This document shows, piece after piece, positions 1,914 through 25,276 of a DNA stretch of 64,000 bases (position 1 is its first letter; the number at the start of each line of letters is the position of its first letter). The DNA lies in the IMG/VR virus record IMGVR_UViG_3300046370_000202; one strand, given 5' to 3'. The notes below the pieces were generated by a model that saw only the letters and a program-made list of their open reading frames with translations, did not search any database and was not told the origin of the DNA. Source of the stretch: a virus. Both the position numbers and the translations under genes were made by a program.

Positions 1914-4900
1914 TTATACGTCAACGTGAGTGGCAGTGACCTTAACGGTTGCACCAGCACTTACAGCTGTGTATGTTAGTTCTACTGAACCATTTGTCAT
2001 TTGAACGTCGGTATCACCTAGCAGACCTGCGCCTGTATAAACGATTCCGTACTCTGTTATATATGCATTGGTTCCGTCGTGGATTACCATGCACTCACGT
2101 ACTTCGTGTTGACCGCCTAGATCTACAGTTACGATGAACTTAGCAGAACGATGGACAGTTGAATCAAACGAAGATACGACAACAGCAGATGTACCTACAG
2201 CAACATCTTCACCCTGAATGAATGCCTTGATTTCGTCAGCTAGTGTTTCAGCACCAACAGACTTAGGATCTAGGACACCAACCGAGTTAGTAGACTGAGC
2301 GATAACAACCGCCTGTGTACCGACTGGGATAGCAGAAGTGAATGTGATTGTCTGATTAGGACCATCAATTGTGTAGTGAGTTGTTGGATCCTGAATAACA
2401 CCACCAACAAACACGAACGAGTTCTGGTTAGTAGTTGCGAAATCTAGTGCAAATACTGTTTGTGAACCGTCACCGCTTAGTGTCTGACGTTGTGCGTCAT
2501 TGAACTGAAGTTGAGTTGGATCAACAAGCTCGATACCAGTACCGTCTGTACGTACGCGAGCAACATATCCTGCCTTTGCAGTACCTAGAGATGAATCAGT
2601 AACGTCTTCCAACTCAACGAATGCCTTACCAGTTGATACTGATAGAACACCTGTTGAACTGTTGTAAGATACGTCGCCTTCACCATCTACGTCTGTGACA
2701 GAGATTGAAGCACGAGCACGTGCTGGAGTAAAGTATTCGTTATCGCCTTCACTTAGATCAGTAGTTGAGAATACAGAGATATGCTGTGCAGCAAGTCCTG
2801 CATCCATCTGACCTTTGTTGACTGCGTCTGTTGCGTCAGTACCGTTTGCAACCGCAACAACCTTGTTTGAACCCATGTTCAAAACACCAGTCATTGTGTC
2901 GCCAGACTTTGATACCTTAGTATCTACTGCAGCTTGTAGAATTACGTCAGCAGCAGCAAACTCTGCACGGATCGCAGCGTCTTCTGAAACACGTGTTGAA
3001 GTTTCAGTAGCAATTGCAGTCGCGTTAGCAGCGATGTCTGTTTGGTTCTGTGATACTAGACCTGTTAGAGTACCGTCTGCAGCTTGGAAAGCAGCAACGA
3101 TTTCTGTTAGTGAGTCTAGTGCAGCAGAGTCAGTGTTTGACTTAATGAAGTCAACTTGTGACTGTAGAGATGTTTCAACACCCTGTGCACGAGTTGATTC
3201 AGCAGCGATTGCTGCAGCGTTAGTTGCGATGTCGCCTGCGTTTGCAACTTCAGCAGCCGTTGCACGGGCAACTTCTGCCGCTAGAGATGCAGTTAGATCT
3301 GAATCGCCAGCAATACGTGCAGCTTCTTCTGCATCAATCTGTGCCTGAAGTGAAGACTCTTTTGATAAACGACCAGTATCTACTGCTTTGATCGCTGCGT
3401 CCAACTTCTGGTCTGCATCTGCAAGAGATGTAGATAGATTGATGTAGTTAGTGCCGGATGGAGTTGCATAAGTGCCGTCAGCATTAACGCCAGCAGCTGT
3501 TTGTGTTGCAGTCATTTCACCTTCAACGACTGTTAGACGTGAGTCTAGAGCGTTGTCAGCAACTTGACGTGCGTTTGTTTCTGTAGTGATCTTACCGTCT
3601 AGGACGTTATCCGCATTCTCACGTAGAGTAGCTTCGTTTGCAACGATGCCGTCTGCGTAAGTCTTAGCATTTGCTTCTGCAGTGTCAGCCTTAGTAGTAG
3701 CGTCTGTTGCCGCTTCTGACTTGACTACAGCGTCTGCCGCGATGTATGCGTTAGTTACTACCACATCTGCCGCAGCGAACTCAGAACGGATTGCAGAGTC
3801 TTCTAGGACACGTGTTGCAATTTCAGAAACAAGAGCATCTGAATCTGCGTCTGCGCGAGCAACAGCAGCTGCAAGACCTGCAGTGTTAACGTCTGTCTCG
3901 CCGTGTACTTCGTTGATTGCACCAGTTAGAGTCTGTGCAGTTGTGTCTAGAGTTTCTTCTGCAGAACCGATCTTCGCTTCTAGAGCGTCGATGTCTGCTT
4001 CGTTAACTGTTAGACGACCTGCTTGTAGACCCTGTTCTGTTTCTAGAGCAGTCGCACGACCTTCTAGTGAAGTAGAACGAGATTCTAGATCAGTTGCACG
4101 TAGTTCAAGAGCATCGATGTCTGCTTCGTTGACTGTTAGACGACCAGAGTTTGCAGAAATAACATTCTGTAGGTCTGAGTCTGCGTCTTCAAATGCAGCT
4201 ACGATTTCTTGTAGTGTGTCTAGAGTTTCTGGTGAAGTACCAACAATCGCATCAACACGACCAGTTACTGCGTCAACGTCAGTACGTAGACCACCTTCAA
4301 CGCCAGTAGCGCGAGTAGTTTCGTCTGCGATTGCAGTAGCGTTGGCTTGTTCTGCAGCCTGTGCACGTGTAACTTCAATTGTTAGATCAGCTGCGTTCTG
4401 TGCGATTGCAGCAGTGTTTGTGTTAACGTCTGAACGTAGACCACCTTCAATACCAGTAGCACGAGCAACTTCTGCTGCAAGTGATGCTGTTAGATCGGAG
4501 TCTGCGCTAGCACGTGTAACGGCTTCTGCATCAATGTTGTTCTGCAATGCAGTGTCTGCGTTTGCACGAGCAACTGCTTCTGCGTCGATGTTAGACTGTA
4601 GAGTCGCATCACCAGCAGCACGAGCAACTTCTTCTGCACGTAGATCAGTTTCGTTTTGATCAGCAAGTGCTTCTACTGCATCCATCTCACCTTCTAGCGC
4701 AGTAGTGCGTAGAGAAAGTGCGTCGTCTGCAGCTGAACGAGTTGCAGCTTCTGCAGTAACTTGTGCAGTAGTGAAGTCGTTTGCTTCTTGCTTAGCAGTT
4801 AGGATACGTGCAGTAACAGTGTTACCGACAGTTCCGTCTACTGTTGCGTCACCGATTAGGGCAGCGTCTTGTGCATCAGCGTGTGCAATTGCAGCCGCTT

Positions 4901-7912: not shown

Positions 7913-8263
7913 TTACCTCGTTACAGAAGGGTTGACTTTTATCTTACCTTCTAGTATTCTTTCTATGATAGTATGTCCGTCTTCATCAACGAAACTGATC
8001 TCAACATCATAGACGTATCTACCACGAGTGGATAGGGCATCGGTTTGCAAGTTAGTTAAGGATATTGTAACGATGCCCTCTAAAGGAGGAGTGGGTATTA
8101 CAGCCGTGAAGTCAATTGACTCTGTACTTCTGTAAGTTTTTTTCAGTTTGGCGGCCGCTGAATAACCAGTAAGATCTTTCTTAGATCCGTCCGGATTCAC
8201 TAACTCTATCTGTAGAGCTAGGTCCGCACCTTGATCAATTGTAAAATCTTCGTAAGTCGCCAT
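7913..8263 (-). CDS. Conserved small virion protein (BppU-N-like beta domain) of T4-like phages
   Basis: IDQGAD...DLTGY.A.A..K..Y...G...ISLT..QT..L..GRYVYDVEI...RILEG.I.V.P.VTR pattern. Confidence 0.7.
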   Translation of the reverse strand: MATYEDFTIDQGADLALQIELVNPDGSKKDLTGYSAAAKLKKTYRSTESIDFTAVIPTPPLEGIVTISLTNLQTDALSTRGRYVYDVEISFVDEDGHTIIERILEGKIKVNPSVTR

Positions 8264-8311: not shown

Positions 8312-9016
8312 TTAAACTGCAGAAATGTCGTCAAGAACCATCTCACGAAATTCTTCAGAAGTCTCTGACCAGTCAAATACATAAGAAACGGTAACACGCC
8401 AGTCATCTGTAGATGCGGCATGATACATTAACTTTTCTGGTTCGTCATAGTGTCCGAAGTATGCAGCCTTACAAGTCCATACTCCTGGCGCGTCTTGACA
8501 ACGAACAACTTCTTTCGTTTCTGGATGAATGTAGTCAAAGTAACCAGAACCATCTTCTGAGTAAGAGAAGATAAGATTAAAACCTGGCGCATTTGCATTG
8601 TTATGCCATGAGATATACCCGCCCGGTGGATAGACTGCTGCAAGTGCATTGTGTTTAACAGACAAGAAGTTCATCATCTTGTCGTTTAGATCACGTAGGT
8701 GATGAGTCATGTCACGTTTAAAGATTGGGTCTGCATCTTTTTCAAACATCTTATGTGCGCGGTCAGATAGTTTGAAGTTATATCCAACCATCTCTTCGGG
8801 AAATCCATCATGTCCCTTGCCCATTGCAACGATGTCATTCATGTATCCTTCACCAACGTAGTATGAACGTTGACGAATATGTTCTGCTGCAGTCAAGTGA
8901 CAGTTCTTTTCAAAACCCTGCATAGTATGCAATTTGGCATACTGGTCTAAAACCTCTAGCAACTCTGGGTTATTTACCTCTACGTGCTTTAGATATTGGT
9001 CGTTTACCTGTGTCAT
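8312..9016 (-). CDS. Putative 2OG-Fe(II)/cupin-fold oxygenase (hydroxylase)
   Basis: YPPGGYISWHNN ... YHAA ... WRVTVSY: DSBH-type H-x-(N)...H...R pattern, with Asn in place of the usual Asp. Confidence 0.55.
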   Translation of the reverse strand: MTQVNDQYLKHVEVNNPELLEVLDQYAKLHTMQGFEKNCHLTAAEHIRQRSYYVGEGYMNDIVAMGKGHDGFPEEMVGYNFKLSDRAHKMFEKDADPIFKRDMTHHLRDLNDKMMNFLSVKHNALAAVYPPGGYISWHNNANAPGFNLIFSYSEDGSGYFDYIHPETKEVVRCQDAPGVWTCKAAYFGHYDEPEKLMYHAASTDDWRVTVSYVFDWSETSEEFREMVLDDISAV

Positions 9017-9741
9017 ACGATTGGAGTATCCTTGTTCAACCCAGCCGAGAAGTGTCTTAAAATTACGGGTCCCGTCTCAGGTCGTGTTCTTGCCCAATTG
9101 AGGGCATTGTAATAATTCCACCTCAAGTCATCATCAAAGATACCAACCTTGAGGTCCTTATACTTTTCTTCCTTCTCAGTTAACCACCAGAGCGAGAACT
9201 GATCCCAAGACTTGAGACTGTCTGCATACCCTTCCGGCCACCAAGAGTCGTTCATCTGTCTGAATGTCAAGTCCCACCAATCGTCCATGAATTCACGTAC
9301 AATCGGTTTACTCATATCATACAAACAAACGCCACCGCATAATGTAAACTTCGCCATACCCTCTGGTGTAGAGAAGTCGCGTTCTGCGTAGATGTAATCT
9401 CTATCATCTGTTAACGCAGAAAACACCACATCGTGGTCTTTCATCTCATCCCAAACTTTTACAATGTCTTCGTGCTCACATTCCATATCAGCATCAATGT
9501 ACATTGTCAAGTCATACGGAGACTTTGCCATCCCCCACAACTTCGCACGGTAGTGATCATCACAAAAGATGATATCATCCGCGACTTCGCGACCACGATC
9601 ATCAATAAACCGTTCTTCGGTCACTAAACAAATCTTGCAATCCTCATAGTAATCTCTAATGGATTCGGCAAGATTCAATGCGTACAAATAAAAGTTGCGT
9701 TTCTTAGACGCAACTAATAAAAATCCTTTACTCTTCTCCAC
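9013..9741 (-). CDS. GT-A fold glycosyltransferase (GT8-like)
   Basis: K.WGMAKSPYDLTMYIDAD (DxD), GGV, WDQFSL, RWNYY and late RH motifs. Confidence 0.75.
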   Translation of the reverse strand: MEKSKGFLLVASKKRNFYLYALNLAESIRDYYEDCKICLVTEERFIDDRGREVADDIIFCDDHYRAKLWGMAKSPYDLTMYIDADMECEHEDIVKVWDEMKDHDVVFSALTDDRDYIYAERDFSTPEGMAKFTLCGGVCLYDMSKPIVREFMDDWWDLTFRQMNDSWWPEGYADSLKSWDQFSLWWLTEKEEKYKDLKVGIFDDDLRWNYYNALNWARTRPETGPVILRHFSAGLNKDTPIV

Positions 9742-10189
9742 TGTCTTCGGCCTCTAGTTGTTCTTGCAGAATCATAATTGAGTACATATCTACTTCAATC
9801 TTTGACTTCGCCCGACGCAGTTTTGCCTTTAACTTGCGGTTCTTAGAGTTTTTAATCTCCTCAACCTCAAACGCTTCTAGTTTGTAGTTGAACAGTTTTT
9901 CAAGCTTACGTGCCTTTTGATGTTCTTCTTCACGTATCTTTTCTTCTTCAGCTTCTGCCTTCTTGCGAACAACACGATCAGATGTTTCCTTATCAATCGC
10001 ATCTTCACCTAGGGCATCAACAACTTCATTAAACAGTTCGTTCTCACTACCATCCTTATCATGACGATGTAAAAACATTTGTTGGCGCGTCACTCTACCA
10101 ACGTCATCTTCAAGTTCTAGAATACAGTTTATTTCTTTCTTTTCGTCTGTTTCCCAGAACGCATTATCCATCCAACGCTTATAACTCAT
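9728..10189 (-). CDS. Hypothetical charged helical protein, first gene of the GT/oxygenase operon
   Basis: 153-aa ORF with GGAG RBS; overlaps the GT start. Confidence 0.75.
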   Translation of the reverse strand: MSYKRWMDNAFWETDEKKEINCILELEDDVGRVTRQQMFLHRHDKDGSENELFNEVVDALGEDAIDKETSDRVVRKKAEAEEEKIREEEHQKARKLEKLFNYKLEAFEVEEIKNSKNRKLKAKLRRAKSKIEVDMYSIMILQEQLEAEDSGEE

Positions 10190-10295: not shown

Positions 10296-13200
10296 TTATG
10301 CAACACGTACGTATAATGTATATGTTTCAGTAACCTCTGTAAGCGTATCTGAAATCGTTGCACCCACGTAGTTACCCAAGAAAGATCTTGCATAGTTACC
10401 AACGTAATCTCGAGCATAATTACCACCAAATGTACGTGAGTAATTACCTGTGAAGTCTCCAACATAGGCAGAGTCACGATTACGTGAGTATGCACCAGAG
10501 TATGCAGAAGTACGGACACGAGCATATGCAGAGACACGGACACGAGAGTAATTACCTACGAAGTCGCGTGAGTAAGTGCCAGTATATTCACCAGTAAATG
10601 TGCGTGAATAATCACCGACATAGTTACCACCGAAGTCGCGAGTATATGTGCCAGTGTATTCACCAGCAAAGTCACGGGAGTAGTTACCTACATATTCCCC
10701 AGCGAAGCCGCGTGAGTAGTTGCCCGCATACTGACCAGAGAAGTCTCGAGTATATGTGCCAGTGTATTCACCCGCGAATCCACGAGCATAGTTACCTACG
10801 AAGTCGCCGACAAAGTCACTTGCATAAGCCCCAGTGTATTCACCAGCAAATGTTCTTGCATAGTTACCAGTAAAGTCTCCAGCAAAATCACGTGCATAAT
10901 TACCAGCAAATGTTCTTGCATAGTTACCAGTAAATGTGGCATTATATGTTCCCGCATACTCACCAACAAATCCACGTGAGTAAGCACCAGTATATTCACC
11001 AACGAAGTTGTTGTTGTAAGTACCAGTGTATGCGCCTGTGTATTCACCTACGAATGTTCGGTTATAAGTTCCTGCGTATTCGCCAACAAATCCACGTGAA
11101 TAGTTACCCGCAAAGTTTCCACCAAAGTCACGTGCGTAGTTTCCTACGTAGTTTCCTCCGAAGTCTCCAACAAAATCACCGATAAAGTTACCAGCGAAGT
11201 TACGAGAGTAGTTACCAGTGAATGTGCGTGAGTAGTTGCCTGCAAAATCTCCAGCGAAGTCACGCGAGTAGTTACCAGTGAATGTACGTGAATAGTTACC
11301 AGCAAAGTTTCCTGCAAAGTTAGTCACACGATCACGAGCATATGTTGATGCACGGTTGCGGATGTATGCAGAAACACGAGTCACGACATATGCAGAGTAA
11401 CGAGTACGAGTAGATGTACGAGTATACTCACCAGTAAAGTTACCGGCATATTCACCAGCAAATCCACGTGAGTAGTTACCTACAAAGTCACCTGCATAGT
11501 TACGGGCGTAGTTACCGATAAAGTTACCAGCGAAGTTTGTTACTCTATCACGAGTGAAGTTACCTGTGTAATCAGTAATTCGTGTACGTGCATACGAAGA
11601 GTTGCGATTACGCGTAGATGTACGTGTTGATGTACGAGTAAAGTTACCTGTGTAATCAGTAATTCGTGTACGTGCATAAGCTGAGTAACGTGTGCGTGTT
11701 GAAGTAATTGTCGATACACGTGTGAAGTTGCCTACGTAGTTTGTTACGCGATCACGAGCGTAAGCTGAGTTACGTGTACGAGTATAGTTTGTTGCACGAG
11801 TTCTTGCATAAGCACTGTAACGAGTACGAGTAGATGTGCGCGTAGATGTACGAGTAAAGTCACCAACATAGTTAGTAATACGAGTACGTGAGTAGGCACT
11901 GTAACGAGTACGTGTTGAAGTACGTGTTGACGTACGAGCATATTCACCTACGAAGTCACCAGCATAGTATCCAGTACGTGTGTAGTTACCTGTATTGGTA
12001 AAGGTCTGAACACGATTACGAGTGAACGCACGAGCGTAGTTACCTGTGTAGTACAATGTACGAGTGTAGTAACCAGTACCTGTACCCGTACGTGTTGACG
12101 TACGGCTGTAATTGCCTTCATATGAGAACGGACGACTACGAGTATAGTTTCCTACAAAATCACCAGTAAAGTTGGTTACACGATCACGTGAGTAGTTTCC
12201 AGCGTATGAGAACGCACGACTTCGATTATACGTAGAAGTACGGGTGCGCGTATAGTCGCGAGAGTAGTTTCCAGCGTAAGAGAATGCACGACTGCGAGTA
12301 TAATCCTCTGCGGATACACGAGTTCGGGCATAGTCCCCAACAAAGTTGCCGGTAAAAGAACCAGCCGTGCCTTGAGTAACCAACCCATAGTAATAATTTT
12401 GAAAAAGTTGCATTTGGAGAGTGCCTCTTGAATAGGTCACTCCATTGTGCGTAATTGAAGTTGCGTTGGCGTTAGTGCTGGTCGCAATAGTCGTAGCGTT
12501 AATAACAACAGAAGCTCCCGCAGTACTCTTTAACCAATATGTGACATATTGGGCGTACTGAGTAGTACTTCCCGAATTAACAGAAGTTCGGGTTGATGTG
12601 CGTGCGTAGTTGCCTACATACGAAGTACCGCCCGTAACTCCAGTATAGTTTCCTACAAAGTTTCCTGTAAAAGAACCGCCAGAACCACTGTAAGTAACGC
12701 CGTAACGAGTTTCCAGCCCAAAGTTCTCTCGGAAAGTGCCTCGATTATACGTGACACCACCATTGGTTATTGATGTCATGGTGGTTCCTTGCGCTATAGC
12801 GACAGAAGAACCGCCCACATAAACAATTACAGTACTGGATTCATTATCAATAACCCAACCATCTGTCACTGTGTTGAAAGGACTCTCCGAATAATCGTCA
12901 GTAGCACCACCAGAACCCGTAGAAACGCGAGTAGAAGTTCGGGTGAAATCTGTACTAGTTGGAGTTCCAGTGTAGTTACCTAAATAAGATCCCGTTCGGT
13001 TTCGAGTAAAGTTTCTTGAATAGTTTCCGCCGAAGTTACGCGAATAATTACCCAAATAAGATCCAGTACGAGTACGGCCATAGTTGCCTACAAAGTTGCC
13101 TGCGTAGTTGACATCTGGTTCGCGAGTATAGTTACCCAAATAAGATCCGGTTCGTGTACGCGCATAGTTACCTACAAAGTTGCCTGCGTAGTATAGTGTA

Positions 13201-15698
13201 CGAGTATAAGCTGGGGTACGTGCATAGTCTGCAGCATAGTTACGTGCATAGTTGCCAGTGAAGTCGCCGACATAGTACAGTGTACGTTGATAGTTCAAAG
13301 TACGTGTTGAAGTACGTGTTGATGTGCGTGAATAGTTTCCTACAAAATCACCAGCATAGTTACCAGCAAAACCACGAGAATAGTTGCCTACAAAGTCGCC
13401 AGTAAATGTAGTCGCGTAATTACCTACGAAATCACCACCGTAGTTGCCTGCGAATCCTCGAGCATAGTTGCCTACAAAGTCGCCTACATAGTCTCCGACA
13501 TAATTTCGGGCGTAGTTACCAACAAAGTTACCTGCGAATGTCGTTGTATAGTTGCCTGTGTAGTTACCTGCAAAGTCACCAGCGTATCCACGAGCATAGT
13601 TTCCTACGAAATCTCCGGTGAATACTGTGGTATAATTACCTACGAAATCGCCACCGTAGTTGCCCACAAATGTACGTGCATAGTTTCCTACGAAATCTCC
13701 GGTGAATACTGTAGTGTAGTTACCCACGAAGTTACCAGCGTAATTAGTAACACGGTCACGTGTGTATGCAGATGCACGAGTACGGGTAGATGTACGCGCA
13801 TAAGCTGAGTAACGTGTTCTCGCAGAAGTACGAGTAGAAACACGAGCATAGTTGCCTACGTAGTTTCCTGCAAATCCGCGTGAGTAGTTACCTACGAAGT
13901 TACGTGAATAGTTGCCTTGGAAAGAACGTGAGTAGTTTCCAATAAAGTTGCCAGCAAAATCGGTCACACGATCGCGAACATATGAAGAAACACGGCCACG
14001 AGTAAACTCACCCGTGAAGTTAGTCACACGATTGCGTGTGTAAGTAGAAACACGGGCACGAGCATAAGCATTTGCAAAGTTAGTGACACGGTCGCGAGTG
14101 TAGTTAGTGATGCGGGTTCGTGTGTAATCTGCAGAGTATGCTGATGTGCGTGTACGAGTTGAAGTTCTTGTATAAGCTGAGTTACGAGTACGTGAGTATG
14201 TTCCGGCATAAGCTGATACACGGTTTCGTGAATATGTACCAGAGTATGTACCTGTGTATGAAGAAACACGAGTACGAGCGTAAGTGCCTGAATAGGCAGA
14301 GTTACGAGTACGTGCATATGTACCTGCATAAGCAGAAACACGACCACGAGTGTATGCAGAAGAACGAGAACGCGTGAACGTACCAGTAAAGTTCTGTACG
14401 CGATTACGTGTGTAAGTAGAAACACGTGCGCGTGAGTAAGTTCCCGCAAAGTAACCAGTAAATGCAGTTAGTCTATTACGAGAATATGTAGAGATACGGT
14501 TACGAGCATACGCGCCAGAGTACGCAGATGTGCGTGTGCGCGAATATGTTCCAACGTATGTTGAGACACGGGTTCTCGCATAAGTGTCTGAATACGCGGA
14601 TGTACGAGTTCGTGAGTAGGTTCCTGTATAAGAGGAAACACGTGTACGAGTGTAATCAGCCGAGTAAGTAGAAACACGATTGCGAATATAAGTCCCTTCA
14701 TATGAAGATGGTCGCGTACGAGTGTACTCTCCGACGAAATCTCGAGAATAGTTACCTACGAAATCTCTATTATATGTTCCTGTGTAGTCTCCAACAAAGG
14801 TGCGGGAGAATGTATCTACACTATTACGTGTGTATGTTGAAACTCTATCGCGAGTGTAAGCCGAAATACGCGTACGTGCGTATGATGAGTTACGTGTGCG
14901 AGAGTATGAACTATTTACAATAGTACGTCGGGTGTTAGTTGCATCACCAACAACAGACCATGTTCCAGGCAGTGTTGGTACACCTTGCGCAGCTGAACGG
15001 AACTGATAAGATCCGATCGCACCGGCCGTCGCACGGAGGGATTTGACACGTTGACCAATAGTATATTTGATCTGATCATCCGACATTTCTTTGAATCCGT
15101 CAAAGTTGGATGACCCATCGTAACAAATAGCAACGGGACGCACTGCGTTAACCACAGGCATCGTTACACGTTGATAGATGTTGTAATTTGTTACTGTACC
15201 ATCACCGTGTGTGTCTGAGAAGACATTTGCGAGGAAGACCGTATAGTCTGCGCCAGGTGATGTACTAGAAAGTTTGAATGTACCGACATAGTCATTCTGG
15301 ACCATGTTACTGAGTACACGACTTGCAAGATTATCCAAATCTGGATCTACCATTTCGTAGAAGCCTGGATTTGGGCCTGAGTCATAATAACCCACAGGAC
15401 GAACAAAATCGGCACCAGTTTCATCTGCAACACCGCCCACCTGACGTAGAGGTGTGGTTACAGTTGTAGATGTGATATTAGTAATTGGGTGAGTACCCGC
15501 AGATTCATTAAAATACGCGTCCGTAAATGAACCAATATTAACATCACCAGTTAAACTGATATCTCCGACTTCACCAGCAGATGCATCTGCTAATGCTTGT
15601 CCCACCGCATAAGAAAGATAGTTCTCTTCTAGCGGTGTAAATTCCTGTAGGTCACCATTAGTATTTTTAATTTTTAGTGGGATACTAGATGCTGACAC
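10296..15698 (-). CDS. 1800-aa tetrapeptide-repeat protein; predicted giant antiparallel beta-hairpin filament with two tip domains
   Basis: GTG start, own late promoter and terminator; 264-aa N-domain then ~1515 aa mostly of Y/F/R/S-initiated tetrapeptides with mirror-complementary arms. Confidence 0.9.
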   Translation of the reverse strand: MSASSIPLKIKNTNGDLQEFTPLEENYLSYAVGQALADASAGEVGDISLTGDVNIGSFTDAYFNESAGTHPITNITSTTVTTPLRQVGGVADETGADFVRPVGYYDSGPNPGFYEMVDPDLDNLASRVLSNMVQNDYVGTFKLSSTSPGADYTVFLANVFSDTHGDGTVTNYNIYQRVTMPVVNAVRPVAICYDGSSNFDGFKEMSDDQIKYTIGQRVKSLRATAGAIGSYQFRSAAQGVPTLPGTWSVVGDATNTRRTIVNSSYSRTRNSSYARTRISAYTRDRVSTYTRNSVDTFSRTFVGDYTGTYNRDFVGNYSRDFVGEYTRTRPSSYEGTYIRNRVSTYSADYTRTRVSSYTGTYSRTRTSAYSDTYARTRVSTYVGTYSRTRTSAYSGAYARNRISTYSRNRLTAFTGYFAGTYSRARVSTYTRNRVQNFTGTFTRSRSSAYTRGRVSAYAGTYARTRNSAYSGTYARTRVSSYTGTYSGTYSRNRVSAYAGTYSRTRNSAYTRTSTRTRTSAYSADYTRTRITNYTRDRVTNFANAYARARVSTYTRNRVTNFTGEFTRGRVSSYVRDRVTDFAGNFIGNYSRSFQGNYSRNFVGNYSRGFAGNYVGNYARVSTRTSARTRYSAYARTSTRTRASAYTRDRVTNYAGNFVGNYTTVFTGDFVGNYARTFVGNYGGDFVGNYTTVFTGDFVGNYARGYAGDFAGNYTGNYTTTFAGNFVGNYARNYVGDYVGDFVGNYARGFAGNYGGDFVGNYATTFTGDFVGNYSRGFAGNYAGDFVGNYSRTSTRTSTRTLNYQRTLYYVGDFTGNYARNYAADYARTPAYTRTLYYAGNFVGNYARTRTGSYLGNYTREPDVNYAGNFVGNYGRTRTGSYLGNYSRNFGGNYSRNFTRNRTGSYLGNYTGTPTSTDFTRTSTRVSTGSGGATDDYSESPFNTVTDGWVIDNESSTVIVYVGGSSVAIAQGTTMTSITNGGVTYNRGTFRENFGLETRYGVTYSGSGGSFTGNFVGNYTGVTGGTSYVGNYARTSTRTSVNSGSTTQYAQYVTYWLKSTAGASVVINATTIATSTNANATSITHNGVTYSRGTLQMQLFQNYYYGLVTQGTAGSFTGNFVGDYARTRVSAEDYTRSRAFSYAGNYSRDYTRTRTSTYNRSRAFSYAGNYSRDRVTNFTGDFVGNYTRSRPFSYEGNYSRTSTRTGTGTGYYTRTLYYTGNYARAFTRNRVQTFTNTGNYTRTGYYAGDFVGEYARTSTRTSTRTRYSAYSRTRITNYVGDFTRTSTRTSTRTRYSAYARTRATNYTRTRNSAYARDRVTNYVGNFTRVSTITSTRTRYSAYARTRITDYTGNFTRTSTRTSTRNRNSSYARTRITDYTGNFTRDRVTNFAGNFIGNYARNYAGDFVGNYSRGFAGEYAGNFTGEYTRTSTRTRYSAYVVTRVSAYIRNRASTYARDRVTNFAGNFAGNYSRTFTGNYSRDFAGDFAGNYSRTFTGNYSRNFAGNFIGDFVGDFGGNYVGNYARDFGGNFAGNYSRGFVGEYAGTYNRTFVGEYTGAYTGTYNNNFVGEYTGAYSRGFVGEYAGTYNATFTGNYARTFAGNYARDFAGDFTGNYARTFAGEYTGAYASDFVGDFVGNYARGFAGEYTGTYTRDFSGQYAGNYSRGFAGEYVGNYSRDFAGEYTGTYTRDFGGNYVGDYSRTFTGEYTGTYSRDFVGNYSRVRVSAYARVRTSAYSGAYSRNRDSAYVGDFTGNYSRTFGGNYARDYVGNYARSFLGNYVGATISDTLTEVTETYTLYVRVA
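10371..11942 (-). repeat. C-terminal arm: 131 in-register tetrapeptide units (524 aa), mirror of the N arm
   Basis: Blocks R34-F9-R9-F64-R7-F8; 1572 nt, same length as the N arm. Confidence 0.9.
13335..14906 (-). repeat. N-terminal arm: 131 in-register tetrapeptide units (524 aa)
   Basis: Blocks R8-F7-R64-F9-R9-F34 counted by hand; endpoints checked against DNA coordinates. Confidence 0.9.
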
Positions 15699-15818: not shown

Positions 15819-16268
15819 TTATGCTGGGGCGTCAGGCCATGGAACATCGTCCAAACTTTCAATTCCGTCTAGAACGTCTGTGATATCACGTAGTTCTTGA
15901 CGATAACCCGCCCACGCATTCTTCATATCTTCTGACAGTGGAGCATCTGGAATTTGTGTCCAATCTGTTCCCGCAAGAAGACCATTTCTTCGTGTACGAA
16001 TATCTTTTATTAGATCCTCAAGATCCCATACCCAGTTTCGTGATTCTGTATCCCATCGACAGTATTGATTTGGTGCGTCCTCACGAGGGTGAAACCTTCC
16101 ATCATCAAAATAATTTCTTTTTATAAACTCAAACCCATTCTCAATAGGAAAGTCTAAATGAAGGATTAAAGATCCATCTTCCTGAAATCCTTGTTCAGGC
16201 AATCTTCCATATGCAGTTTGAAGGTTTATTATTTGTTGATCTTTAATGTATGCAATATGATTTACCAT
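15819..16268 (-). CDS. Tail fibre assembly chaperone (Tfa/phage tail assembly chaperone-like)
   Basis: IRTRRNGLLAGTDWTQIPDAPL...WAGYRQELRDIT...VPWPDAP signature. Confidence 0.85.
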   Translation of the reverse strand: MVNHIAYIKDQQIINLQTAYGRLPEQGFQEDGSLILHLDFPIENGFEFIKRNYFDDGRFHPREDAPNQYCRWDTESRNWVWDLEDLIKDIRTRRNGLLAGTDWTQIPDAPLSEDMKNAWAGYRQELRDITDVLDGIESLDDVPWPDAPA

Positions 16269-17011
16269 TATAATAATTCTCCTATTAAAATTTGATTTCT
16301 GATTCTTCCATATGATGTAAAGTATTCATCTCCAAATGGATTAGAACCAGACCTATCGTCTTCTTCGTTCCCCGATTGTCCTGTTGAGTTTATAACTGTT
16401 ACCTCATTAGCTTGTACCGTGAGAGAAGAAGTGTATGTGAAACATTGTTCCTGTGATGCTAAATCAGTAGGACTTGGGTTATAGTAAGTCCAAACCCAAG
16501 GCAGAGAAGATTCTAAATCACTTACTGAAATATATTTAGATCTATGCCCTAAATCATACCCATAAGTTATATCTGGATATGAATGTGAATCTGTGATTTG
16601 GAAATGATTAGAACCAACTGCCCTAGAGTCAAACTGAACACTTTCGTTTTCATTATAAATGATAAGTCCATAGTCATCGGTGGAACTAATTTGACCAGCC
16701 TTTTTTATAACGAAGTAATCTAAAGATACCGGATATTTATTGTCATTGTTTGAAACGTATCTATAAAAACTAAAAGAGTTTGTGCTGGATGTAGGAAAAG
16801 ATTGACCGTTCGTTGGTTCTACAAAAAAATTATAAATTGAACTTCCCGAGGTGTGCAGAGAAGGATCTGCTCGGACAAATAATATTTCACCCGAAGTCAG
16901 TGTAATGGATGAAGCAACACCAGCCTGAGTAACTATATAACTACTCAGCGGGTTTGATGAATCGAACATCAAACCGTTTGCATCATTAAATACTTGTAAT
17001 CCGTATGACAT
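16268..17011 (-). CDS. Tail-tip accessory protein
   Basis: Two YGL.(V/I)(F/Y)N......FDS repeats typical of genes following gpJ-like tail tips. Confidence 0.6.
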   Translation of the reverse strand: MSYGLQVFNDANGLMFDSSNPLSSYIVTQAGVASSITLTSGEILFVRADPSLHTSGSSIYNFFVEPTNGQSFPTSSTNSFSFYRYVSNNDNKYPVSLDYFVIKKAGQISSTDDYGLIIYNENESVQFDSRAVGSNHFQITDSHSYPDITYGYDLGHRSKYISVSDLESSLPWVWTYYNPSPTDLASQEQCFTYTSSLTVQANEVTVINSTGQSGNEEDDRSGSNPFGDEYFTSYGRIRNQILIGELL

Positions 17012-17961
17012 TATGACAACCTAAAAATTTCAATATTGAAGGCAACATCGGTTGAACTTTGATTAGTAATACTTATAGTATTACCAGAAAAAGATGATGA
17101 TATCCCATTCGGGTCGGCACTAGGAAATAATCCTACAGCATATTGAGAGGTGTTAGTGACGTTTGGTATTGTTATTTGAGTAGTTCCGCCCGCAGTAGCT
17201 GTCGCAGCAAAACTTAATTCTTGTTTGTTTAACACAACATCAACTTTAGAAGATATTATTAACGTTTGATTTTCATTAAAAATCTCCAATCCATACCCTG
17301 TGCCCGAACCTATAGGTGTTGGTCTTTCGTCCGCATCACTATTCGTTGTTGTTCCACCACCACCATCAACAACATTAACGATGTTCATAGTACCAGACTG
17401 TTTGGTTAAAGATGTACCAGACACTGTCCCAGAAACAGTAACTTTAAATGATTCATTCGACTCACTCAATGAATCAGTCGATAATACAACTGAAAAGGTA
17501 CCAGTATTATTAGATATGTTTACTGTTCCTGTCACTGAAGAAAAGTCAGAGTTAGAGGTCGTTACATTATTAATCGCCCAGTTAAGTTGAGTTGTTCCCG
17601 AAGGGAAATTGGCAGTATTGACATCAAAACTTATTGTATCACCTTCAGAATGCCAAGCTGATCCATTACTAGGAGAAATTGTAGTGATAGAAGGTGTGGA
17701 ACCGCTACCACCGCCCCCACCACTACTAGCACTATTGCTTATAGAGTAGTAAGTCGAAGTGGAAGTTCCAACAAATGGACTGGTGGTTGTTACTGTTTCT
17801 TCAACATCACCTCTTGTGTAAGTGGTACCTTCGAATACAAAAGAAGATGCGTCTGACGGAGTAACTGTGGCACTAACACCATCATATGCAATGAAAGCAC
17901 CAAATTGACTAGAAACCCAATAGTAATATGGAGCAGTTGTCCTTGAATATTGAAACGACAT
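17011..17961 (-). CDS. Modular tail-tip/adhesin protein (small N-domain, Gly linker, Calx-beta/Ig-like domain, YGLEIFN domain)
   Basis: SEGDTISFDV...DFSSVTGTVNI....TFSV....D.L.E.NESFKVTV Calx-beta-like pattern. Confidence 0.65.
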   Translation of the reverse strand: MSFQYSRTTAPYYYWVSSQFGAFIAYDGVSATVTPSDASSFVFEGTTYTRGDVEETVTTTSPFVGTSTSTYYSISNSASSGGGGGSGSTPSITTISPSNGSAWHSEGDTISFDVNTANFPSGTTQLNWAINNVTTSNSDFSSVTGTVNISNNTGTFSVVLSTDSLSESNESFKVTVSGTVSGTSLTKQSGTMNIVNVVDGGGGTTTNSDADERPTPIGSGTGYGLEIFNENQTLIISSKVDVVLNKQELSFAATATAGGTTQITIPNVTNTSQYAVGLFPSADPNGISSSFSGNTISITNQSSTDVAFNIEIFRLS

Positions 17962-17962
17962 A

Positions 17963-19471
17963 TTATGTTAACTTCCCTAACTTAATTCTTGTGGCTCCAT
18001 TCGCGTCACTAATAGTGATCAAGTTTCCTTTGATGTTCATAGAACCGTCGTCATCTGAAGTAGTAACGTCGATTTCGCCTGTCACTTTCGCATTAGAAAG
18101 TTCTACACCTTCAGCAGTAACACTAAACGGAGCAGTACCATTACCAGTTCCATCTGTAGGTAGAATCTTGAATGTATCTGCGGTAATTTCAAAGTCTGCC
18201 GTGGTACCGTTGTTACCGAACTTAATACCTGCAACCTTTGGATTGCTCTCGGTTCCTGCAACAAGATCGATACCCCACGTTGCTGTAGTATTACCTTCCG
18301 AGTCAATCAACGCAGTAAGCGTTTGCGTTGCTTGTGAGATGTCACTATCAATTTTAGCAATTAAGTCGGTCTGCATTTGGGTGGTGACGGAAGTGATTTT
18401 TCCATCGACTGTAGTAATCTGACTTTCTAAAGCACTCTTTGCTTCGGCAACCGCTGTCGTTACATTACCATTCTCATCTGTCACGAATACATTGTTATTA
18501 AGAGTTGTTATATCCGACGCCAGTGCAGTGACTCTATTTTCAGAGGAATCGTACTCTGTACGAGAAATTAATTCTGATTGTGCTTCAGATAAAGCTTCAA
18601 CTCTTGTGTTTAGATCTGAATCAACAACCGCTAGTCCCGTCTCTAATTCTACAATCTTTGCCGCTTCAATTACCAGTTTGTCACTATCCGCGTTCATGCG
18701 AATTGTTAACGTGTCTCCTGCCCCTGCCATTGCAGAGTCGATCATCTCTGGAGTAATGTTGATGCCGTCTTGAATAAACTGATCTAAAGTAAGTCCTAGA
18801 GAGTCGACCGATTCTAGAATTACACTCAGACCATCTGAGTTCACATTAATCCTAGAAGTCAACGAGGAGACTGCGCTAGTGTTGATATCAATTCTTTCGT
18901 TGGTGTCCGAATTAAATAGTAATAGGTTGTTCTCAACGCTGTCGATGATGCCAGCGAAAGAAACAATCTGATCGCTGTTTGCTTCGATGCGTGAGATGAT
19001 TGAAGTATTAGCACTAGCGATGGCTGATGCGAGAAGGTCAGAGTCTATCCCACCAAGGACCATATTATCTAAAGAAGCTTGGGTTTGGATCAAGGCTTGT
19101 GATAAAACAAGAATTCCAGAATCGGTGTTATCGATACGGGACTCTAATGTAAAGATAGCAGAGGCGTTCGCTTGAATATCAGAATCATTTACGTTTGTAT
19201 TGATCGTGAACTGTTGAAGGTAATCTTCGTTGATCACTGTTAGGAAATAGTTCGAATCAAGGAACGTCGCCATGAAGTCGTTGAAGACCGAAGAATCCAA
19301 ATAATTATTGATTAAATTATTCGTCTCTCCAGTATCTACACCACCAGACTCGGTCGGTGTCGGTAAAGGAATATCTCCCGTTACAATACCATCGAAGTTC
19401 TGATTTATTTTTAGAACAGCGGCGTTAATATTGTCTGCAAGATTGACTACTTGTATGTTACTCATTTGCAT
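17963..19471 (-). CDS. Coiled-coil fibre with lambda gpJ C-terminal-like (DUF1983-type) domain
   Basis: C-terminal VAGIKFG...DFEITADTFKI...APFSV...RIKLGKL. Confidence 0.65.
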   Translation of the reverse strand: MQMSNIQVVNLADNINAAVLKINQNFDGIVTGDIPLPTPTESGGVDTGETNNLINNYLDSSVFNDFMATFLDSNYFLTVINEDYLQQFTINTNVNDSDIQANASAIFTLESRIDNTDSGILVLSQALIQTQASLDNMVLGGIDSDLLASAIASANTSIISRIEANSDQIVSFAGIIDSVENNLLLFNSDTNERIDINTSAVSSLTSRINVNSDGLSVILESVDSLGLTLDQFIQDGINITPEMIDSAMAGAGDTLTIRMNADSDKLVIEAAKIVELETGLAVVDSDLNTRVEALSEAQSELISRTEYDSSENRVTALASDITTLNNNVFVTDENGNVTTAVAEAKSALESQITTVDGKITSVTTQMQTDLIAKIDSDISQATQTLTALIDSEGNTTATWGIDLVAGTESNPKVAGIKFGNNGTTADFEITADTFKILPTDGTGNGTAPFSVTAEGVELSNAKVTGEIDVTTSDDDGSMNIKGNLITISDANGATRIKLGKLT

Positions 19472-19696: not shown

Positions 19697-22600
19697 TTAG
19701 TGATGCGCAACGTCAGTTCCATCTTCGGAATCTGACCCTGTACTGTCACCACTGCCTCCTGCACCCGAAGTGCCAGAACTTTGTGCTGGGGTTAACTCTC
19801 TAGAGATGCGGTGATAGAATATTGAGATGCCGGGATTACTCTGGTCTAATTCTTCTAGATCACCCTTGAAGTAAGTGTACCCATCATTAGCGTCAATAGA
19901 TACAATTTGTGTATCATCAAGACCTTGTGTTTGAGAAAGGTCATATGTTATACTAGATCCATTCCAATAAATGCTAGCTATATTAAATTCGTCACCGCCG
20001 CTTATTATTTGAGAGATAGAGAAATAATACTGAGGTGCTGTTCTAGAATAGAAATCGAGTTCCGGTTCAGGTTCTGGTTCGGGCTCTGGTTCTGGTTCAG
20101 GACCTGGCTCAGGTTCGGGCTCTGGTTCTGGTTCAGGACCTGGCTCAGGTTCCGGTTCTGGTTCGGGTTCTGGTTCAGGTTGTGGTTCGGGTTCTGGACT
20201 TGGAGCAGGAGTATCTACTGGGTTCAAGTCTAGGTCAAACAACTCTCCAAACTTCTGCAGTCCGCTAGCAGTGATCAAAGAGATTGCACGAAGGTCTGTA
20301 ATCATCGGAGACTTAGATGAATTGTCAGACTTCATTACAATCATGACTTGGAACACAGTAAATGGTTCTGCGTCTAGTGTGTACTCATAGTCACGGAAAA
20401 TGTCCGGATTCTCATCTGTAGGCATTGGTGTGTCAATTTCAATTTTCGCCCACAACGCATCAGCAAATGCGTTCTCATCTAGAGATGTACGTGCGTACAC
20501 TTCAAACTCTGCACCACGTGCTCGGTTCGCTGCGAAGATAATTTTGAGACCTTCTGACAACTCATCAATGATCACAGGTGTTGTAATGTGTTGAGTTGCG
20601 TTTCCATTATCGATGACATTTTCTAGAGTAACTACAGAAACTCTTTGTAGATCAATCACAGGGGAAACTTTAGGGTCGCCCGTTGACATATCTAATTTGA
20701 ATTTTAATGTTTTTACGGGAGAGTTGTCTGAGGTAGCGACAACATTCGGATTCGTATTTACATTTAGGTCATTGAGCGACACGCTTTGTATTTTACTTAC
20801 AGGAGGATCCTGTGTATATGAGTGTTGTTGAAATGTACGACTAGACCCATACGAATCCGCCAGAGCTTTAGTTACGGTAGGTTGAATACTTGTAGACCTA
20901 GGTGAGAAAGACTGCACTTGTGGAATATATTGATCATAAACCACCTGTTGAGTTGCCGTGACGTTATTACCACCACCTTGCGCAGAACTTGTTGCTGCAG
21001 CCGGTGCGGTAATGGTATACCCTTCCCACGTCGGAGATTCTACAACAAATGATCCTGTAAGTTTGTCGGGAGTAAGTCCGCCCACATTACTTGATACGTC
21101 TGATAAGACGACAACATCACCACTACTAAATCCATGCCCTTGGTGTTGCACTTTAACTTTATTTGATCCTGCTTCAATAGTTTCAAACGGACTCTGAATC
21201 AAAGTCACTTTAGGTAACTCTGCATTCTCTAAGTGTAGTACACCAGAAGGAGCAAATTCTGCGCGATCCAGTTTAAACATCAAATCCTTAGTTTGATCTG
21301 GAGTCCACGTTGATCCGTTCTGCGACAAGAACAGAGAACCTAGTGTTGGTTGACGTGATACTCTGGCTTCACGAGAAGGTCCTACAACAAACTCATAAGT
21401 CTGTGCGGTATATACATTATAATCTACAGACTCAGCAAGTAGTACTATAGCATATTCTTCGCCAGGAGTCAAGTAAATTGGTTCATCAAATACAACTTCT
21501 GTTCCTCTTTCAGACAGGTAATCTATACCCTGTTCTTGTGCGTCTGCTAAAGGTGTCACCATGATATCTTCTGAATTGACAAACTTTACTGCGCCTGGTA
21601 CAATACGATTTGTAGGTACGCCATTCTCTACTGCTCGGATTTGAACTTGCATAGGAATGACAGAGTCTTTACTCTCAACATAAACATGTGCTTTGGTGAT
21701 AAAGATGCCGTTTGGATTTTCTACTTGATCAACAAAGAATGTCTGCGCAAGTGGATCTCGCCAATAAGTTGTTTCAACAATACGCGTTGTACGCATAGTA
21801 CGTTGTATTGTCTCGATAGTACCCACCGAAGTGTATCCTGCGCGACTGACCGCAGTAGAATCTTCTTCATTGTTTTTGCTGATGTCAAGTAGTTTAAATT
21901 CTTGCCGACCAGTTCTAAAGCTAATATCTGGAGTGTTGGGTAAGAAGAAAGAACCTATCAGTTCTCCTTTATCGTCAGTTACTAGGTCGCCTTTGCCGCC
22001 TAATTCGGTAGGATATTCGGTTGCATTAGAATATTGATTGCCGTATTCGGTTGGGTCGTCAGAGAAGTTGACATAAGTAGACTCTGGTCTTACCCAATCA
22101 TTCACATCTTTGTTGCCAAAGAAAGCCCACATAGGACTATTAGGCCTCAATCCCTGTACCCTAAATGATATTTTGCGAGAACGCATGAAAGGAATAATCT
22201 CCACATCCAGAATGCGTTCTCCTATAAATTCTTGAATTGTTTTTGACGTTACTTTAGATCTAATTTTATTATTAGGTCTTGAGAAGAAAGTAGGCAAATA
22301 AGTCGTAATACGACGTACAACATTCTGCATTATATCGGGCAGTCTTTTAGTCTCTACCCATTCGTCAGATGACGGAGACAATGTCATATGTCCGTTAGAA
22401 GTGATAACCGCAAAAGGGTTAATGTTGTCTGTACCAGTCGCTAATAGTTGAGATATTATTGTAACGTTTGTATGAGGTAGAGTAACAAGGTCTCCTTTCT
22501 TAGAGGCGGTATTTTGTATGTTGGTTGCATCATACATTAAACGTACAGAATTTTCCACGAATGATGGACGCAATAAACCATCCGGATCTACCGATGCTCT

Positions 22601-25276
22601 ATAAGCAGGATTATGCACGTCAGAAAAGTTCAGTGTGCTAAAGTTATCCGCAATGAATCCCGCTTTGGTACGAGGGTTGCCGTTCGCATCTAATACTTGT
22701 AAGACGTTGGTATTAGTCTCAAGGAAACTCAATGCAGTCAACTCGTACAATGTCTCTACGCGATCAGACAACTTAGAGATGTCTTTCATTGTGAACCGGC
22801 GATTAGGTATGTATGTGCTGATCACATCCGAACGGTCGAATGTGTATGCGTTCAACGTGAACTTGTATAACGCTAATGATCCTGCGGGCGTCTCTGGTTC
22901 GCGTGGATCAATAGATGGTTGACCCTGAATAACTTGTAATTCCCCAAAACCTATATCTCCACGACTGTCTGTAGAGTTCACTACAAGAATATCCGTACGC
23001 GGTAAGTAGTAATCAACTTGATTAATTATAATCGATGAGGCGTTCTGTGGCAACTCGATGATATCAAAAGAGTCTTGTGGCTGAACAACATCTCTATCTG
23101 GTCTGAAATCTAGTACATCGCGTAAAGAGATTGTCTCTCCAGTGCTAATTGTGGTGTGTGAAGGGATATCTTCATATGCTAGTCCAGTGTATGAACTCGC
23201 AGCAAAGAATTTGCCACCATCTATACGTTCGAAGTACTCAAAGGAAATTTCTATTGATACGTTAGGTCCGTGTGGGATAGTGTATCCTTCTTTTACGAAA
23301 GCTTTTGCGATATCATAATAGTTGTCTCGTTGACCGCCATCTAAATCAAACTGGAATGTGATGTCTGTAGTTGTACTACCGTTAGTTAGTTGGACAGATG
23401 TTATTGAAATCGCGTCGACAACCGACAAAGAAATATGCGTTGTTTCTTGAGTCACATTTATTGTTTTCGACCCCGTAGTGACTGTTTTTGTTTTAGGGGA
23501 GATAGACTCTTGCTTAAAGTATGCGATCGCATATGTCTTATTGTCATCTAATCCGGAATACGTTGATGAATTATCAGAATTGGGTGTAGGGGCAATTTTA
23601 AGAATTGGTCCGTTTACTTCTGAAATTATCCAACTAGAAGATTCAACACCCGCAATAGTAATTACCCCGCCAGATGGCTGGTCTGTTCTAAATTTTTGTG
23701 ATGTGTAAGAAGCGCCTTGAATGCTGTTTTGTTCCGGAGATTTATATGGCAACGCGAATAACAGATCGTTATTAGATGTTCCATATAGTGTGGTATCAAA
23801 TGTAAGCGGTGTTTGGTCTGAATCTGTATCGAAAGATAAAGGTCTTAGTGGGATATCATTTCCAAATTCATCCTGTAAATATCTTACACCTGAGAATGGG
23901 TAACGAGCACTAGTTACGACAGTCTGGCCGTCGCTGTCAGTATACTCAATTTTATCCATTTTAATGTCAAAGACATACAAGCGATAACCTACACCATCTC
24001 TTTGAATTCCTCTAATGTGTGCGGTTCCTAACAATTGTGTGACTTCTTGATAAACTCCAAATAAGTTTACTTTGCCAAATGTGCCTAGTTGACCGAACCC
24101 TTCAGTACGATCTGGATCAATGTATACCCAGTTTCCATATACAGCAGGTACCGCCTCTTGTGTCTGTGTTCGCGTCTCACGGGCTTTAGGTACAGTTATG
24201 TCAGTAGTACCTACTTCTAAACGATAACCGTCTACGTACGCGACACCCTCTGTAACGTCTAAGTTTAGACTTGTGCCATCTTCTTCTAGGTCTTCAAAGA
24301 TAGCTCTAAACTCTTCGACAACATAGTCGCCAGATTCTTCTTTCGTGCGAAGTGCCAGTAGATCATTGACACGATTATATGCGTCAAATGTACTAATCTC
24401 TCGTGTAATCACGCCGTTAACGATACGAGCAACGAATACAAAGTTATCTTCTCCGGCCTCTTTACGTGTAGACGGAATTAGTTTAATCTGATAACGATCT
24501 GCGCCTGGGGCGGTTCTATCAGGAACTTCGCCTTGATTGTCGTATAACTTTGGATCTTCGTTTGATGACGGTCCACCCGCTTTGACTATATTCTGTTCTA
24601 TCTTAAATCCAAAGTCTACTGTGGGAGTGCCACTATACTTGTCAACGAATGTGCTGCCGCCACTTAGATATACAAAATGTCCTTGTACAAAAAAGTCCCC
24701 CGACGAAAAATATGCTTTAGTCGATTTACCCGAAGCTGGAATAACAAGATCTAGTCCATCATCTCCAGTGACTATCGTATCTGGACCTACGACCATGTTA
24801 ACTCCACCAGTGCCATCTGCAAAAGATAGAACATTGGTGGCGTCTACACGAGGAGAAATGGTTGTATCAGTAACACCTAATGTGCTTGTATATTGTACGT
24901 ATAGTGTAGCTGGATCGCCTGTAGGATTTGATGGATTGGGAACAACCGCATCATGCAACTCTATAATCTTAAACTCGACTTCACCATTCGTCAACACATC
25001 CCCAACGGAAGCACTTGTAATATCACTGCCGGACGTTAATCTAATATACTCCAATCCATTATCTACAGTCGCACCGCCTGGATTGACCATCGCACCTTCT
25101 TTAAAGATGTTCTGACCGAATCGTGCGATTTCTTCTTGAATGATTGTTTGTTGTTCGATTAGTTCACGAGCTTGAAGCGCACGACCGGAATTGTATAGGA
25201 CACGATAGTAACCGTCATTCGCGTCATAGAAATCGCGATATGTTTCTCTGAACGTTTTGTTTGTAAAATCTACCAT
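19697..25276 (-). CDS. VrlC-like (DUF4815-type) large virion structural protein with PE-repeat linker and appended C-terminal domain
   Basis: [67 protein letters not shown] motifs. Confidence 0.85.
20061..20210 (-). repeat. (PE)n Pro-Glu linker repeat
   Basis: [40 protein letters not shown]... Confidence 0.9.

Follow-up and report, generated by a model that had tools for sequence, protein, structure and literature searches.

A doubled, possibly forked and probably host-binding tip on the fold-back fibre of an uncultured T4-like marine phage

Introduction

If a fibre protein runs outward, turns and comes back along itself, what does it carry at the turn, and could the turn be branched? A long gene in the IMG/VR virus record IMGVR_UViG_3300046370_000202 raises this question. 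The record (160,050 bases, 93% complete) belongs to an uncultured, T4-like marine phage, and the whole stretch of 64,000 nucleotides that was analysed is referred to here as the window. The gene, on the minus strand of the window at 10296-15698, encodes a protein of 1800 residues, P0001, which comprises an N-terminal globular domain (residues 1-250), two paired arms and a conserved C-terminal strand. By composition P0001 is 15% Thr, 12% Gly, 11% Tyr and 11% Arg, with three His and a single Cys. A first-pass annotation, made from the letters alone, took the segment at 11943-13334 (minus strand; residues 789-1252 of the 1800-residue open reading frame) for the Y-shaped tip of a hairpin that displays two binding domains.

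The comparisons reported below give good support to reading this segment as the distal end of a fold-back fibre, with a tip that is doubled and hypervariable, and they suggest that the phage probably shows a doubled, possibly forked, host-binding tip. All positions are those of the window, and all parts of the fibre gene lie on its minus strand.

Results

Two arms in one mirror register

The arms of P0001, residues 261-909 and 1133-1781, pair free of gaps if residue i is set facing residue 2042-i, from about 261:1781 to 909:1133. This stalk sets Arg opposite Gly or Phe and Tyr opposite Tyr, and no slid register matches register 2042: it has 78 R:G, 62 Y:Y and 46 F:R pairs, compared with about 46, 34 and 19 in the in-phase slid registers, and there are 11 G:G and 2 R:R pairs, compared with about 20 and 21.

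Relatives gathered with the N-terminal domain from IMG/VR and metagenomes amount to 49 complete proteins, 44 of them distinct, with lengths of 663-3347 residues. In the complete relatives of 663-1911 residues, the best register equals the length of the protein plus 242-247 and is essentially gap-free. Arm length varies from about 120 to about 760 pairs across the relatives, and both arms stay equal through compensated insertions and deletions; the exceptions, each with an insert in a single arm, are L054 and L080 (C arm) and L081 and L037 (N arm). The orthologue in phage C48C1 (L001:11012-21055, OQ984149.1), at 3347 residues, has arms of about 1040 pairs. Its N arm (256-1292) runs without a gap and its C arm takes up six inserts of 50-265 residues (1788-2052, 2074-2123, 2406-2558, 2643-2800, 2885-3058 and 3129-3255), which would form side domains that loop out from a single stalk strand.

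Furthermore, in P0002, which is distantly related and has different ends, the mirror order has a score of 91.9; the parallel order reaches 21.4 and block shuffles 33 +/- 8. Between P0001 and its homologue L002, 15 double changes fall at paired positions (odds ratio 5.5, p 1e-5); slid controls reach 7-12, so this measure of co-occurring substitution is only moderately above background. Taken together, the register counts, the equal arms, the P0002 score and the co-occurring substitutions indicate that the two arms are kept in register by selection. The simplest physical reading of the stalk is an antiparallel two-stranded ribbon, presumably with beta-ribbon geometry and with its pairs formed within one chain. 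A chain that folds back in this way would turn the middle of its sequence into the distal end of the fibre, an arrangement that the comparisons support.

The inner stalk continues the pairing

The first-pass annotation held that the stem continues between the arms with new, covarying pairs, and this is borne out. The N strand of the inner main stem (12972-13334; residues 789-909) contains a conserved STRTSTRT-LNY-LYY region and three RTRTGSYLGNY units, and the C strand (11940-12302; residues 1133-1253), with three RSR(A/P)FSY units and GYY/LYY motifs, faces residues 909-789 in the same gap-free register 2042. As the annotation had also described, the three N-side units (847-857, 875-885 and 899-909) lie opposite three C-side YxRSR(A/P)FSY(A/E)G units, so placed that Gly 851, 879 and 903 face Phe 1191, 1163 and 1139, and Tyr faces Arg. 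All 14 occurrences of this inner-stalk site in P0001, L002 and L007 pair Phe with Gly, as F:G or as G:F; elsewhere the site is Ala:Ala. In L007 the orientation is reversed, the N arm having the Phe motif and the C arm the Gly motif, and this flip points to co-variation rather than to shared ancestry alone. At the level of DNA, the copies of the inner units are spaced 72 + 84 nucleotides on one arm and 84 + 72 nucleotides on the other, a mirror image.

The LYY/GYY motifs do occur on both arms (807-809 and 835-837 on the N arm; 1209-1211, 1215-1217 and 1243-1245 on the C arm), but their first interpretation as bulges is rejected, because the register stays at 2042 through them and on either side. 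The N arm has two and the C arm three, and the extra Tyr of each lies on the other face, opposite Thr or Ala.

A pair matrix taken from the outer arms was also tried on the inner stem and failed to validate it. The inner stem uses other pairs, such as G:F, so the matrix is unsuited to it, and the same mismatch gives the single-hairpin alignment of P0001 a misleading alternative path.

Two related domains at the turn

Between the strands of the inner stalk lie the two non-repetitive domains of about 70 residues that the annotation had seen, here called D1 (about residues 929-1007) and D2 (about 1043-1110). With its Gly/Ser linkers D1 occupies 12672-12920 (residues 927-1009) and has a core, residues 935-1007, of confidently predicted all-beta fold; D2 with its linkers occupies 12357-12581 (residues 1040-1114). 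What had gone unremarked is that D2 is a paralogue of D1, the two being 29% identical over 59 residues (BLASTP E 1e-7). A profile of the D1-type domain matches D1 at 2.4e-34 and D2 at 1.5e-27, both of which were in the profile, so the independent support is the BLASTP match. By this match D1 and D2 are evidently homologous to each other, and both conform to the features of the type: about 70-85 residues with a conserved W, a G-(V)-T-Y-x-R-(G) motif and a Y-(G). An AlphaFold2 model of D1, built on a six-sequence alignment, is an all-beta structure of eight strands with a predicted local distance difference test score (pLDDT) of 85-94 over residues 935-1007, which supports the view that D1 is an independent all-beta domain.

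Searches for the tip elsewhere returned little. A tip-profile scan of IMG/VR gave no match, nothing credible came from PHROGs for the tip region or from Pfam for six tip-domain sequences, and a tip-profile search of 1.8 billion representatives found one credible relative, P0003. This protein of 168 residues (L012:6001-6507, L013, L014) joins an N-terminal hydrophobic segment to a D1-type domain (hhalign probability 97%), and its gene adjoins gp32 and baseplate genes in other T4-like marine phages. That such a membrane-anchored copy of the tip domain acts in superinfection exclusion is speculation. Nearer the fibre gene, a targeted search matched the D1-type profile to residues 9-76 of a neighbouring protein of 316 residues (17011-17961, minus strand) at 17.6 bits and E 2e-7, for which the hhalign probability against the D1-type domain is only 23%. 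The C terminus of a protein of 1859 residues (19697-25276) gives a weak match of 5.3 bits, and that of its L077 orthologue one of 5e-6. From these matches the D1-type domain looks like a module common to several virion proteins.

A duplicated cassette

Each domain is set in flanks of its own. Following the chain from the N arm, a junction linker, J1 (12948-12971; residues 910-917, TGTPTSTD, with a Pro), leads to the N strand of mini-stem 1 (12921-12947; residues 918-926, FTRTSTRVS), whose C strand follows D1 (12645-12671; residues 1010-1018, FTGNFVGNY). Linker J2 (12621-12644; residues 1019-1026, TGVTGGTS) lies between the cassettes and holds the centre of the mirror register (1021). The N strand of mini-stem 2 (12582-12620; residues 1027-1039, YVGNYARTSTRTS) and its C strand (12318-12356; residues 1115-1127, FTGNFVGDYARTR) enclose D2, and a further junction linker, J3 (12303-12317; residues 1128-1132, VSAED), leads into the C arm. 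J1 cannot pair by the code in any register. The code allows local pairing of residues 918-926 with 1010-1018 (i+j=1936) and of 1027-1039 with 1115-1127 (i+j=2154).

The same arrangement surrounds every D1-type domain: STRx units before it, xG[ND][FY] units after it, and a Gly/Ser linker to either side. Counting the in-phase Arg units that precede the domain and the G[ND] units that follow it gives equal numbers in 14 of the 15 cassettes (Spearman rho 0.92), although the cassettes are related to one another and a p value for this correlation is therefore overstated. The counts are 1:1 in five cassettes, 2:2 in seven, and 3:3, 4:4 and 1:2 in one each, both P0001 cassettes being 2:2. Of 13 single-tip homologues, 12 have their innermost Arg and Gly at most one residue off the register of the adjoining stem (the offset in L077 is four), a fit which suggests that the two flanks are the last pairs of the hairpin. 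Because both P0001 cassettes are complete and the mirror centre falls in the linker between them, the doubled tip appears to be a tandem duplication of the whole stem-loop cassette.

The tip is the most variable part of the fibre

Identity between P0001 and L002 declines steadily toward the tip, from 93% in the N-terminal domain through 90-91% in the outer arms and 73-78% in the inner arms to 41% in D1; D2 is absent in L002. A single D1-type domain, always at the mirror centre, is found in 17 other complete homologues (16 by another count) and in P0002, and P0001 alone among the 44 distinct proteins has two, the others having none, one, or unrelated domains. What occupies the turn differs across the family: a D1-type domain, a domain of one of at least three unrelated types, or a loop of 31-144 residues without a recognisable domain. 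Thus, the comparison of homologues agrees with the variability that the annotation had expected of a tip: tip number varies (none, one or two), there are at least four unrelated domain types, and divergence is much greater in the tip than in the arms. In phage fibres, the host-recognition part typically shows itself as a hypervariable, exchangeable module at the free end, and the variability seen here is what a host-recognition tip would be expected to show.

The domainless central loops of L020:10001-14701, L005:5840-11575 and L024 are 116-144 residues long, Tyr-rich and irregular, with turns that are Gly-rich or contain Pro, and local stem scores within them are not above those of shuffles. 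Other variations on the fibre were seen among relatives. Just upstream of the main fibre, L030:4574-8077 and L028:1-1836 encode a second, shorter fold-back fibre (about 1170 residues, P0002-like), likewise with a D1-type cassette at the turn. In P0008 (1798 residues, cut by the end of the contig), the conserved CYD and FDGFKEM motifs of the N-terminal anchor domain are separated by an insertion of about 800 residues, which carries FG-GAP-like and LamG-like Pfam domains (PF14312, PF13385).

A possible forked tip and its alternatives

How might two cassettes be arranged at the end of one stem? The best explanation, which in my judgement has about an even chance of being right, is that the segment forms the far end of a fold-back fibre, made of duplicated cassettes each with its own closing stem, forked, and used for binding the host. 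The chain would leave an N-terminal anchor domain, run out for about 650 residues, turn and return, as an antiparallel beta ribbon of two strands that places residue i next to residue 2042-i. Alternating aromatic sites (Tyr:Tyr, Phe:Arg, Phe:Ser) and Gly:Arg sites would occupy one face of the ribbon, and near the distal end the pairing rule would shift to Phe:Gly and Tyr:Arg. In relatives, the turn would be a cassette in which a short closing stem (STRx against xGNF) and Gly/Ser linkers hold an all-beta domain of about 75 residues. In P0001, an old tandem duplication would have copied the whole cassette (the two copies share about 30% identity), and each chain would consequently end in two paralogous domains. 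Each copy most likely keeps its own closing stem, in which case linkers 910-917, 1019-1026 and 1128-1132 would form a three-way junction beyond the last main-stem pair, 909:1133, and from it two stalks, one of 9 pairs and one of 13 (roughly 3 to 4.5 nm each), would each carry a single domain. The tip domains would most likely bind the host, and as diverged copies they could confer a higher avidity or a pair of specificities. The assembled fibre is probably a trimer, by analogy with other fibres.

Such a Y-shaped three-way junction is plausible. The fork is narrowly favoured because local pairing of the flanks would be ancestral, as the single-tip relatives suggest, and because it gains two extra in-code pairs, G1029:R1125 and Y1027:R1127.

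Several results weigh against this explanation. The mini-stems have code scores of 14.5 and 14.8, whereas the best stems of block shuffles reach 12.9 +/- 1.5 (maximum 16.9), a difference of about one standard deviation, so that support for the mini-stems comes from their position and from the homologues and not from the code score. In AlphaFold2 models the mini-stem flanks have pLDDT below 50 and no model shows stem pairing; the mean pLDDT for residues 790-1250 (five-sequence alignment) is 30. AlphaFold2 also fails on the well-supported main stem, however, so its failure is uninformative about the fork either way. A swapped pairing of the flanks has a total code score of 27.4 against 29.3 for the fork, about equal, and a tandem duplication would bring the outer pair of that swapped arrangement into register automatically. 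With regard to function, comparison of the D1 model with solved structures gave nothing at E<=0.001 in a Foldseek search of PDB and a best Z of 2.8 in a VIA-align comparison with 48,161 chains. Its best fold matches are phage proteins with a Gp38 domain, and these are weak: probability 0.91 and TMq 0.38 in BFVD, and a template modelling (TM) score of 0.49 over 69 residues in the ESM Atlas. This resemblance of the model to a Gp38-type fold is a lead, not a result. A feature-based search of the ESM Atlas with the D1 model yielded no usable match.

The first-pass picture is thereby divided. Where it had each domain closed by its own mini-stem, the flanks and linkers are present and can pair by the code, but closure of each domain by its own flanks goes beyond this, as the swapped arrangement scores equally. 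A mid-sequence segment that becomes distal and carries two domains stands; the Y topology is the part of that claim that does not yet follow. Structure prediction of the segment, from which the annotation had hoped to see the tip fold, bears out D1 as an independently folding unit, but not the segment as a whole or the pairing of its flanks.

The swapped pairing is the alternative that survives best, and I regard it as unlikely. The outer flanks, 918-926 and 1115-1123 (i+j=2041), would extend the main stem, the inner flanks, 1010-1018 and 1031-1039, would form an apical hairpin, and D1 and D2 would be looped out from opposite strands to give a T or a trident. Its two stems score 14.8 + 12.6, equal to the 14.5 + 14.8 of the fork, and the face-B pairs T919:D1122 and N1017:A1032 fit it slightly better. 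Domains looped out of a single strand with the register kept are, moreover, common in the family (six in the C arm of C48C1, C-side inserts in L054 and L080, and an N-side insert in L081). However, the fork explains the partners of G1029 and Y1027, namely R1125 and R1127, whereas under the swap those residues would face Thr and Pro, and the pairing of one domain's flanks with each other in 12 of the 13 single-tip homologues argues that local pairing is ancestral.

A different objection concerns function rather than topology. D1 and D2 might not bind receptors at all and might instead be structural caps, folding nuclei that set the register, or docking sites for a virion or chaperone protein, with recognition placed elsewhere in the fibre cluster. 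D1 is without an above-noise match to any known adhesin fold, and a D1-type domain also occurs at the N terminus of the neighbouring 316-residue protein and on the small membrane-anchored phage protein, as a general module would. Nevertheless, setting the register does not require a domain, since many homologues fold back around a domainless loop of only 31-38 residues, and no other part of the fibre varies nearly as much as the tip, which is swapped between unrelated domain types. I consider this alternative distinctly improbable. A role for D1 and D2 as host-binding adhesins is plausible, given their position, their variability and the two weak fold matches.

A rod with two identical ends would be unusual for a tail fibre. 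This counts against the least likely alternative, which has very little in its favour: that there is no fold-back, and that the N arm of one chain instead pairs with the C arm of another, antiparallel chain, so that the domains would lie halfway along a symmetric rod of roughly double the length; although pairing between chains would meet a constant i+j equally well, the cassette registers 1936 and 2154 need local hairpins, homologue stems are closed by loops as short as 31-38 residues, and within one chain the invariant C-terminal strand would meet the N-terminal domain, as in the needle-in-collar insertion of T4 gp37 (PMC6957217).

If the forked, fold-back fibre is taken as the preferred explanation, a broader proposal can be attached to it, which I hold rather more tentatively. 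The stems may pair so strictly that the fibre protein evolves like the secondary structure of RNA, with matched insertions, bulge domains on single strands, and a duplicated cassette that becomes a true three-way junction, the outcome being a branched single-chain fibre with two diverged binding domains.

Genomic setting

The fibre gene sits in the tail-fibre/baseplate block of a tailed phage. Neighbouring it are genes for a Phage_tail_APC chaperone (15819-16268) and a Phage_Tail_Tip protein (17963-19471); neighbouring genes also match tail PHROGs, and an LtfC-like match at 7913-8263 is weak. The order is kept at the P0002 locus and in C48C1 (OQ984149), the closest GenBank phage and the sole close one, which has identical gene order and is filed under Kyanoviridae. 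Since psbA (PF00124) was sought in the whole phage genome and not found, the host is not necessarily cyanobacterial, and may perhaps not be a cyanobacterium despite that filing.

A Pfam scan of the whole of P0001 gave no family at E<=1, and a PHROGs scan gave one family only, of unknown function, and no named family. Its N-terminal domain had no credible match in PHROGs and no match in a PDB sequence search.

The fibre gene is immediately followed, at 8312-10189 on the minus strand, by three overlapping genes (153, 242 and 234 residues), and three of the same sizes lie downstream of the fibre gene in C48C1. The 242-residue protein has a Glycos_transf_2 hint at E 0.011, under the cut-off, the other two are without a family hint, and no oxygenase family was seen among the three. 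These genes may be candidate assembly or modification factors for the fibre. At the edge of the window, an open reading frame at 2-1831 (minus strand) runs off the window start and is part of an open frame of 5166 residues (G000:C1:100157-115654) without the fibre repeat code.

Discussion

Literature searches on fold-back fibres returned T4/S16-type tips only, those on the repeat motifs and on phage C48C1 returned nothing relevant, and I found no paper describing the P0001 family or a branched tip on a single-chain fibre. The doubled tip on a fold-back fibre is new. Known branched phage adhesion devices are built from several proteins. If the fork is real, branching of a fibre would be achieved within one polypeptide, and a simple residue-pairing code could specify stems, bulges and junctions in a protein, which would be of interest for fibre design and for insight into the ways in which phages change or widen their host range. 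Even without the fork, the hairpin turn is mapped as a site at which host-recognition modules would be exchanged, and P0001 is an instance from nature of a single fibre with two modules that have diverged from each other. The stalks are also a useful test case, since current structure predictors fail on them.

Two known systems bear comparison. The first is the Gp38 adhesins (PF05268), to which D1 is linked by its top fold matches, proteins whose Gp38 domain may or may not be the part matched (TM 0.38-0.49), and by position, as both are at the distal end of a fibre. PF05268 is not listed in an hmmscan of the six tip-domain sequences at E<=10. Furthermore, Gp38 is a separate protein that caps gp37, whereas the D1-type domain lies within the fibre chain.

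The second, and closer in design, is the needle of T4 gp37 (domain D11), in which a stem formed by residues 882-931 and 960-1009, with the tip between them, is inserted into the collar domain D10 (PMC6957217). In both fibres the chain would run out to a receptor-binding tip and back, so that the distal tip is mid-sequence; in both, the stalk is an insertion between parts that are joined at the base; and both belong to the tail-fibre gene block of a T4-like phage. The fold-back of the gp37 needle is matched in P0001 by evolutionary evidence alone, namely the register and the equal arms across 44 homologues. The differences are nonetheless considerable. The arms are about 650 residues long in P0001 (up to about 1040 in a relative) against about 50 in gp37, thirteen times longer. 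P0001 is without HxH iron sites, none of its three His lying within the repeats, and it pairs by a four-residue code of Arg, Gly, Tyr and Phe with strict co-variation. Its tip would be a duplicated cassette of independent domains, and gp37 has no sequence or Pfam similarity to it. Thus, P0001 works like the gp37 needle design but is not a member of it.

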